A stretch of 6,745 nt of DNA from a virus (taxonomy: Duplodnaviria; Heunggongvirae; Uroviricota; Caudoviricetes). The stretch's first letter is position 1. Each line of letters opens with the position of its first letter. Shown piece by piece: positions 2,654-2,950 of this stretch. The translations under genes and the position numbers were made by a program. The notes below the pieces were generated by a model. The model was not told the DNA's origin and made no database searches. It was given only the letters and a program-made list of their open reading frames with translations. The stretch is taken from IMG/VR virus record IMGVR_UViG_2671181188_000015. One strand, written 5' to 3'.

Positions 2654-2950
2654 ATGAATATTTTGAGAAAGCTTATGCAGAGTCTGTGCGGTTGCGGAAA
2701 GCATGATGACTGTGAAAACGGACGGTCACTTACAGCACAATTGCGACTGGGACCGGCAGACATTCTGGAGTCAGATGAGAATGGCATTATTCCGGAGCAG
2801 GACAGGGTAATCACACAGGTGGTGATACTGGATGCAGATAAAAAGCAGATACAGTGTGTGGTAAAATGTTGTCATGTCCGGTGGATGTTTGTTAGGAAAG
2901 CAAAGATGGCAAAACTGCTGGAGGTTTTGTGGTTGAGTATGCCAATATAA
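2654..2950 (+). CDS. Hypothetical small Cys-rich protein (98 aa), translationally coupled to stf
   Basis: ATG at 2654 lies 1 nt after the stf stop and is preceded by GGAG (2644-2647) with 6-nt spacing. The 98-codon frame runs to TAA at 2948-2950. The protein contains six Cys (C-x-C-x5-C near the N-terminus and C-x3-C-C-H near the C-terminus). I recognise no family. The track ORF 2522..2950 is the same frame extended upstream over the stf 3' end. Confidence 0.4.
   Translation: MNILRKLMQSLCGCGKHDDCENGRSLTAQLRLGPADILESDENGIIPEQDRVITQVVILDADKKQIQCVVKCCHVRWMFVRKAKMAKLLEVLWLSMPI

Follow-up and report, generated by a model that had tools for sequence, protein, structure and literature searches.

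The open reading frame (ORF) at 2654-2950 of IMG/VR virus record IMGVR_UViG_2671181188_000015 (6,745 nt in full, referred to here as the window) is, as judged by sequence comparison, an in-frame, 3'-truncated copy of a well-conserved prophage gene of 89 codons whose family is already known. The window covers the right-hand end of a lambdoid prophage of E. coli O157:H7, of the Sp3/CP-933K type, and here the small gene follows a collagen-like side tail fibre gene. The intact gene encodes a free-standing version of PfC, the C-terminal domain of such fibres, which in our view probably serves as an accessory of the fibre or distal tail; the window carries a deletion-damaged and most likely inactive copy of it. 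A preliminary description of the same DNA had presented the ORF as a cysteine-rich protein of no recognizable family, lying where an stf/tfa module appears broken. The family is recognizable, as detailed below, and the ORF does sit at a break, although the module is not stf/tfa but a collagen-like fibre of the EPclA type paired with a small PfC protein. The description's further suggestion of a degraded gene residue was right in that the gene copy is 3'-truncated, but the frame is the native one and not an out-of-frame piece of the fibre gene.

Translation of the window sequence on the plus strand reproduces the ORF as first described, with 98 codons followed by TAA, six cysteines, a Shine-Dalgarno (SD) sequence at good spacing and a start codon 1 nt past the fibre stop. 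Its parts are as follows.

2644..2647, plus strand: SD sequence GGAG, with six nt to the ATG at 2654, as read from the sequence
2650..2652, plus strand: stop codon TGA of the fibre gene, which together with C2653 and ATG2654 makes up the coupling junction TGA-C-ATG
2654..2863, plus strand: native part of the small gene, codons 1-70, identical to O157:H7 genes
2864..2866, plus strand: junction codon AAA (Lys71; the native codon is AGA, Arg), from the alignment of the raw window and TR01 sequences
2867..2950, plus strand: read-through tail, CCHVRWMFVRKAKMAKLLEVLWLSMPI and TAA, which elsewhere is intergenic DNA downstream of the terminator

Codons 1-70 encode an amphipathic helix (residues 3-12) and a Cys-Gly-Cys (CGC) motif (residues 12-14, nt 2687-2695). 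A flexible linker then leads to a PfC-like domain that begins at residue 28 (nt 2735) and whose first four beta-strands are still encoded here. These 70 codons are 100% identical to the WP_001024022.1-type genes of O157:H7. Constraint was measured on 81 intact copies among 83 loci (L001-L003 and 80 IMG/VR prophage loci), representing 52 distinct DNA sequences. Codons 1-70 are more than a chance ORF, since across these intact homologues the ratio of nonsynonymous to synonymous polymorphism (pN/pS) is 0.14 in this frame and above 1 in the other two; for codons 1-70 alone it is 0.15. Codons 72-98 (2867-2947), by comparison, are not natively coding: all other genomes have this DNA beyond the stop codon and terminator of the gene, its homologues differ by 1-2-nt indels among prophages, and in 47 of the 71 homologous loci examined they contain stops in all three frames. 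Interruption or absence of the frame in close homologues, which the preliminary description would have counted against a real gene, is what we found for codons 72-98, while the opposite (conservation under purifying selection, strongest in the PfC-like domain) was found for codons 1-70.

The origin of the tail was seen when the raw sequences of the window, of O157:H7 TR01 and of other strains were aligned. The window lacks 96 bp (positions 3368-3463 of the TR01 locus, L001), with a G-to-A change at 2865 and the deletion point directly between 2866 and 2867. Elsewhere the 6.7-kb window matches many O157:H7 genomes at 100% identity, and the corresponding segment in these is 96 bp longer. The lost segment holds native codons 71-89 (RPLQILRADGTWENIGGMK) and their stop codon, followed by a spacer of 14 nt and an intrinsic-terminator hairpin, AAAACCGGAGTCCGGCTCCGGTTTT, which folds at -21.2 kcal/mol (z -3.9). 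A terminator scan recognized no plus-strand terminator within 2400-3200 of the window; it should be noted that this simple scanner also misses the native terminator, as the T-run pairs into the stem, and RNA folding and conservation were used for it instead. With the stop codon and the terminator deleted, translation therefore runs 27 codons into formerly intergenic DNA, giving K-CCHVRWMFVRKAKMAKLLEVLWLSMPI.

As the deletion takes the last two beta-strands of the PfC-like domain and adds a non-native tail, the 98-residue window product is most likely misfolded and non-functional, and the allele inactive. Structure predictions with AlphaFold2 (AF2) are in line with this. In the AF2 model of the native-type sequence, residues 3-12 are helical and residues 14-24 form a disordered linker; residues 30-85 make up a beta domain of six strands with a predicted local distance difference test score (pLDDT) of about 80-88. 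The mean pLDDT falls from 72.2 for the native protein to 52.7 for the window product, whose domain is modelled at about 60 and whose residues 74-88 and 93-98 score below 50. The larger effect of the deletion may lie elsewhere, in that no terminator is left to separate nleB2-nleC from the phage late operon.

The deletion itself must be treated with some caution, as it may not be biological but rather an artefact of assembly, sequencing or editing, in which case the true locus would have the intact 89-codon gene and its terminator. No copy of the junction was found in 5,426 complete E. coli genomes, nor in INPHARED phages, IMG/VR contigs and JGI metagenome contigs; likewise, neither the 98-residue product nor a 111-residue product from an upstream ATG was found in a collection of 15 billion proteins or in a gene-position index. 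This uniqueness, the full identity of the remaining window to many O157:H7 strains, the lack of microhomology at the deletion ends, the unmatched substitution adjoining the junction and the inclusion of a strong hairpin, a typical site of sequencing or replication drop-out, all speak for an artefact. On the other hand, private deletions are common in decaying prophages, many natural truncations and chimeras occur at this small gene across the family, and the window itself shows no sign of error. We therefore regard an artefact as a somewhat unlikely explanation, yet one that should be kept in mind.

The origin of the tail also bears on the cysteines. The six cysteines of the window protein (C12, C14, C20, C68, C72 and C73) are present in the sequence and fall in two clusters, as had been pointed out, but the second cluster, CVVKCCH, owes C72 and C73 to a tail that starts at the deletion junction and is therefore a junction artefact; C72 and C73 are absent from all homologues. 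C12, C14, H17 and C68 are invariant in 81/81 intact copies, of which 33 have Cys at position 20, 47 have Arg and 1 has Ser. A zinc site of the form CxCx2Hx2C was considered and rejected, as C20 is variable. The proposed metal-binding site or disulfide knot thus loses its basis, with only C12, C14 and C68 being conserved cysteines, and what remains conserved is Cys-Gly-Cys following a short amphipathic helix. That the 98-residue product is nonetheless a functional, novel Cys-rich protein that binds metal or forms a disulfide knot was suggested by its six cysteines in 98 residues, its good SD sequence and its coupling to the fibre gene. However, C72, C73 and the entire tail derive from non-coding DNA through a unique deletion, C20 is not conserved, the exact protein was not found in other collections and the confidence of its model is low; we consider this possibility largely refuted and barely credible.

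The family assignment is based on profile searches. Residues 28-76 of the small ORF match PF06820 (Phage_fiber_C) with 84.3 bits (E 7.6e-24), well above the gathering cut-off of 25 bits, although the domain in the window protein is incomplete and covers only positions 1-51 of the 64 in the profile. A complete PF06820 domain ends in ...RPLQ..DG.W...., and the corresponding native C-terminal segment is the one deleted here. The same truncation is seen with PHROG 576, of which the window protein covers positions 1-74 of 89 (E 6e-47) and the native protein 1-89. The native length is 89 residues in 81/81 intact copies, as opposed to the 98 of the window protein, and in an identical locus PGAP annotates a 270-nt gene encoding a 'phage tail fiber C-terminal domain-containing protein' (WP_001024022.1). 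The domain of the small protein is about 34-37% identical to the PfC of the fibre. In a Pfam scan at E<=1, PF06820 was the only match and no Tfa family was found; NCBIfam gave no match for the small protein, PADLOC models gave none at E<=1, and a PDB sequence search with the family profile returned only spurious matches to the Optineurin coiled coil.

The sensitive profile search and structure prediction proposed earlier thus led to PF06820, PHROG 576 and a modelled beta domain resembling a fibre tip. In the BFVD, the top structural matches are phage tail fibres, with a root-mean-square deviation of 2.5-3.4 Å over about 60 residues, and in a PDB fold search the best matches of the PfC fold are the Mu fibre, with marginal scores in both cases. 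A profile hidden Markov model comparison with Mu S was not significant, so the resemblance to Mu is seen in the fold searches alone. The small protein is thus predicted to have a fibre-tip-like fold, with homology to the Mu fibre not proven.

Comparison among related prophages shows that the intact gene is a real gene under constraint. The overall pN/pS value is made up of 0.04 for the PfC-like part and 0.27 for the N-terminal 28 codons, while the PfC of the fibre in the same loci has a pN/pS of 0.24 at a similar pS; constraint on the free-standing copy is thus about six-fold stronger. Translational coupling to the fibre gene, which had been proposed for the window, is borne out by the invariance of GGAG-N6-ATG and TGA-C-ATG in 79/79 loci. 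In all loci, the gene upstream of the small gene ends in PfC, and in nearly all of them a terminator is found 14-17 nt past the small-gene stop, ending the late operon; this is the terminator deleted in the window.

A divergent lineage is represented by locus L085 (protein P0140; GCA_008387015.1, AAKHPG010000016.1). At 59-65% identity and with a quite different fibre shaft, it keeps the pair of fibre PfC and small PfC protein, the SD sequence, a start that overlaps by 14 nt, the terminator and effector cargo downstream. Between this lineage and the others, the small proteins are 65% identical and the fibre tips 44%, with 35-37% in cross-comparisons, and therefore the duplication is old and both copies have been retained. 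The genes downstream of the L085 pair are NleG-like and SopA/NleL-like effector genes, and the locus has no megablast match among the 5,426 complete E. coli genomes.

The family is narrow, being found in E. coli, E. albertii, C. rodentium and a few others, with only 83 representatives among 1.84 billion proteins. Within this niche it is very abundant: a positive E. coli genome has it in about 10 places (median), and it is carried in 296 phage records, most of them of Stx-converting phages, short-tailed as well as long-tailed. When species-representative genomes were scanned, almost the only additions were E. albertii, a contig that is probably a contaminant and a metagenome-assembled genome (MAG) of Clostridiales. 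The contig (L088, NZ_JPLE01000138.1, 'Xanthomonas pisi DSM 18956', 725 bp) has a full-length copy that is 92% identical and is most likely contaminating E. coli DNA. In a distant fibre-like protein (P0156, 565 residues; L089, the MAG), at least 4 tandem PfC-like units (...VVVLDAD...LQVRRADGTWMEIPALKG) precede collagen-like repeats; the unit can therefore be iterated in one chain, whereas E. coli encodes its second copy in a gene of its own. In numerous natural chimeras (P0063, P0098, P0129, P0043 and P0136), the N- or C-terminus of the small gene is swapped for fragments of J, Lom, NleG (DUF1076), CII or fibre PfC. The small gene is often a breakpoint in decaying prophages, at a boundary prone to recombination and deletion.

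As for function, the native small protein combines an amphipathic helix, a conserved Cys-Gly-Cys and a flexible linker with a free-standing copy of the C-terminal knob of the fibre, a small beta domain that in the fibre trimerizes by itself. Its translation is coupled to that of the fibre gene, and a strong intrinsic terminator follows with no gene in between. We propose that the protein most likely forms a PfC-type trimer, possibly stapled through CGC, which would associate with the fibre or distal tail as a non-essential accessory present in few copies. The biochemical background for this is the work of Ghosh 2012 (PMC3368898), in which the EPclA fibre was a trimeric dumbbell and PfC alone was trimeric and nucleated refolding of the collagen helix, with both EPclA and PfC produced in E. 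coli without the small protein. The genetic background is the systematic set of in-frame Sp5 deletions of Mondal 2016 (PMC5155283), in which the fibre gene, ORF67, was essential and the 89-residue ORF68 was listed as a non-essential late gene. It has thus been shown that Sp5 particles infectious on K-12 can do without the native protein and that the fibre folds in its absence. That the protein is made is seen in proteomic data, with small-protein peptides present both in O157:H7 lysogen lysates and in phi24B virions; in the latter case, the supplement of a 2026 cryo-EM preprint lists the peptides ADGTWENIGGMK and VITQVVILDADKK, unique to the small protein, from sucrose-purified virions.

These findings bear on the idea that the small protein is a partner of the fibre. 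Coupling and the shared PfC domain support that idea in part, but a chaperone-type role, equivalent to that of lambda Tfa, Mu U or P2 G, is unlikely because the small gene is non-essential while the fibre is essential, and because recombinant EPclA and PfC fold and trimerize autonomously. The position downstream of the fibre gene and the translational coupling would suit a chaperone, as would the resemblance of PfC, in fold searches, to the Mu fibre tip, to which the Mu chaperone binds. Nevertheless, no Tfa family is matched in Pfam and the protein is half the size of Tfa; the Sp5 data already imply that virions lacking the small protein carry trimeric fibre at normal levels. We rate this role as extremely doubtful.

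A different proposal sees in the small ORF a second fibre tip, spare or alternate. It would then be a silent cassette held in reserve for recombination into the fibre gene, or else the 3' portion of a fusion to the fibre made by frameshifting. The small ORF has the same domain as the fibre tip, its frame is open for 46 codons upstream of the ATG in 73/75 copies, and natural chimeras between both PfC domains exist (e.g., P0136). Published labels also point this way: Mondal 2016 suggested a 'reservoir' role for ORF68, the phi24B authors included hypothetical gp61-gp59 frameshift fusions ('Fusion_6159') in their database, and in KU977419.1 (phage AU5Stx1; L084) a 130-codon ORF at 4881-5270, overlapping the fibre gene by 119 nt, is labelled 'atfT, alternate tail fiber tip'. 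A literature search on the 'atfT' label found no published support for it. A silent cassette or frameshift tip is unlikely since the gene has its own conserved start (with SD sequence, ATG and N-terminal peptide all conserved), is under stronger constraint than the tip (pN/pS 0.04 vs 0.24, and 65% vs 44% identity across lineages) and, in L085, lies in a frame that is closed one codon ahead of its ATG. Moreover, no frameshift signal was found (PMC5155283), and the examined part of the phi24B supplement contains no fusion-diagnostic peptide. A programmed +1 frameshift at GAA-TGA-C, by analogy to prfB, was considered and rejected, as tRNA-Glu cannot re-pair in the +1 frame, the signal is absent (Mondal et al.) and the L085 frame is closed. 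Taken together, the proposal of an alternate tip is very improbable.

Several observations weigh against the proposal of a fibre or distal-tail accessory and should be considered before it is adopted. Trimerization and fibre binding of the small protein are predictions, and the AF2 models are of monomers only. The phi24B virion peptides have 3 spectra each, and the authors regard Bor and Lom, seen at such a level, as contaminants. In lysogen lysates, the small protein is far above the CP-933K fibre (APEX 171 and 238 vs 0.75) and is fractionated with membranes, and therefore a role in the lysogen or at the membrane fits these data better than that of a stoichiometric fibre partner. Finally, the deletion is read from the source record and could be either a private mutation or an artefact.

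The native protein may thus act in the lysogen, as a membrane-associated copy of the fibre tip, possibly lipid-anchored at Cys14, that masks the receptor or excludes related phages. In uninduced O157:H7, the small protein was found only in a membrane-enriched size-exclusion fraction of >280 kDa and in an iodixanol membrane fraction, and the authors proposed an atypical lipobox, LCGC, while remarking that there was 'no hydrophobic leader' (PMC3210124). The ECs0845 transcript rose 5-fold in spinach root exudate with no induction (PMC4940412). The protein's excess over the fibre encoded by the adjacent gene, the position of the gene, which closes the late operon in the company of moron-type genes (lom, effectors), the invariance of Cys12 and Cys14 and a very strong conservation that would fit binding to an invariant host target are consistent with this as well. 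Lipoprotein processing, however, is expected to follow a lipobox [LVI][ASTVI][GAS]C after a positive n-region and a hydrophobic h-region of >=7 residues. On inspection of the sequence, LCGC is lipobox-like, but the 11 residues before the first Cys (MNILRKLMQSL, with K, Q and S, and R in most alleles; also MNILKKLMQRL, with Lys, Gln and Arg) contain no hydrophobic stretch, and so no h-region precedes the Cys. Neither was a sigma-70-like promoter found in 1200-3200 of the window; the gene is tightly coupled to a late structural gene, it has no PADLOC match, and the purified phi24B virions contain its peptides. We therefore hold an action in the lysogen to be unlikely, and the same is true of its corollary that the window allele has kept the N-terminal anchor while losing the folded domain. 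A more elaborate version, in which the intact family is a receptor decoy or exclusion factor, made in lysogens in greater amount than the fibre and held at the membrane by the helix and CGC so as to block the target of the fibre or protect kin, and in which the deletion also removes the late-operon terminator and leads to co-transcription of nleB2 and nleC with the late genes upon induction, is decidedly improbable. A free-standing PfC acting as an accessory of the fibre or distal tail is thus still the function that we favour.

The surroundings of the small gene are those of an effector-carrying prophage end, with the order J C-terminus, lom, collagen-like side tail fibre, small ORF, nleB2, nleC and nleH1. 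The neighbouring elements are as follows.

1298..1319, plus strand: intrinsic terminator after lom, from the terminator scan (AGCCCGCCGGTTCAGGCGGGCT then TTTTTG)
1336..2652, plus strand: collagen-like side tail fibre of the EPclA type (PfN, coiled coil, collagen, PfC), from Pfam and PGAP
2425..2616, plus strand: PfC tip domain of the fibre (PF06820, residues 366-429), paralogue of the small ORF domain
3004..3984, plus strand: nleB2, the first cargo effector gene, from Pfam (PF24688) and PGAP

For the fibre, the ORF list gives a GTG start at 1330, while PGAP gives the ATG at 1336. Its Pfam matches are PF08400 (residues 5-136), PF01391 and PF06820, the last of which covers profile positions 1-64/64 (E 1e-33). 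The terminator at 1298-1319 is the left boundary of the unit of fibre and small gene; its strong hairpin (AGCCCGCCGG-TTCA-GGCGGGCT then TTTTTG) lies about 16 nt ahead of the fibre ATG. As terminators flank the fibre and small-gene pair in intact loci, Q antitermination is presumably needed for its expression. Directly past the small-gene terminator, some 25-30 nt (TGTTGTCATGTCCGGTGGATGTTTGTTAGG; window 2867-2896, and the same place in L004-L083) are conserved, while the cargo downstream is unrelated and similarity among prophages stops; this short segment looks like the fixed left edge of an exchangeable cargo region. Between nleC and nleH1, PGAP marks two pseudogene remnants in an identical locus, a YkgJ-family Cys-cluster protein at about 5148-5261 of the window (minus strand) and a Tfa without its N-terminus at about 5540-5695 (plus strand). 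Both suggest that the cargo region was put together through recombination with the tail-fibre regions of other phages.

The finding itself is of an ordinary kind, being a damaged allele of a known family, and its first consequence is that the one element of the window with no assigned function is a damaged copy of an annotated prophage gene, which removes an apparent orphan. The remaining interest lies in the role of the intact conserved gene and in the loss of the terminator ahead of the effector cargo. With about ten copies per enterohaemorrhagic E. coli genome and nearly 300 Stx-phage records, the intact gene is translated, constrained and dispensable in the laboratory, and thus presents a small and tractable question in Stx-phage biology. 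Its terminator normally insulates the nleB2-nleC cargo from phage late transcription, so that, if the deletion is real, effector expression could be coupled to prophage induction in this strain.

Comparison with known systems places the gene more precisely. The copy in O157:H7 Sp3/CP-933K is the same gene, with identical codons 1-70, SD sequence, TGA-C-ATG and position after the EPclA fibre, from which the window allele differs in lacking codons 71-89, the stop codon and the terminator and in having a 27-codon tail with two extra cysteines. The PfC domains of the EPclA and EPclB collagen-like fibres (Ghosh 2012) belong to the same Pfam family, at the identity given above, whereas the small protein is free-standing, has its own helix and CGC peptide and is about six times more constrained. 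With lambda Tfa, Mu gp50/U and P2 G, the likeness is that of a gene directly downstream of a fibre gene and expressed together with it; the small protein, however, has no match to their families, is about half their size, is itself a homologue of the fibre tip and is non-essential in Sp5. T5 Llp and phi80/N15 Cor are small receptor-blocking phage lipoproteins encoded beside receptor-binding genes. The membrane-fraction location of the small protein in lysogens is reminiscent of these, although it has neither a hydrophobic signal peptide nor homology to them and is coupled to a late structural gene. Finally, the G segment of Mu (S/S') similarly encodes a second fibre-tip-like domain right after the first, and the Mu fibre is also the best PDB match of the PfC fold. 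Unlike S', however, the small gene has the same orientation as the first, with no invertase or inverted repeats, starts from its own codon and is more conserved than the resident tip.
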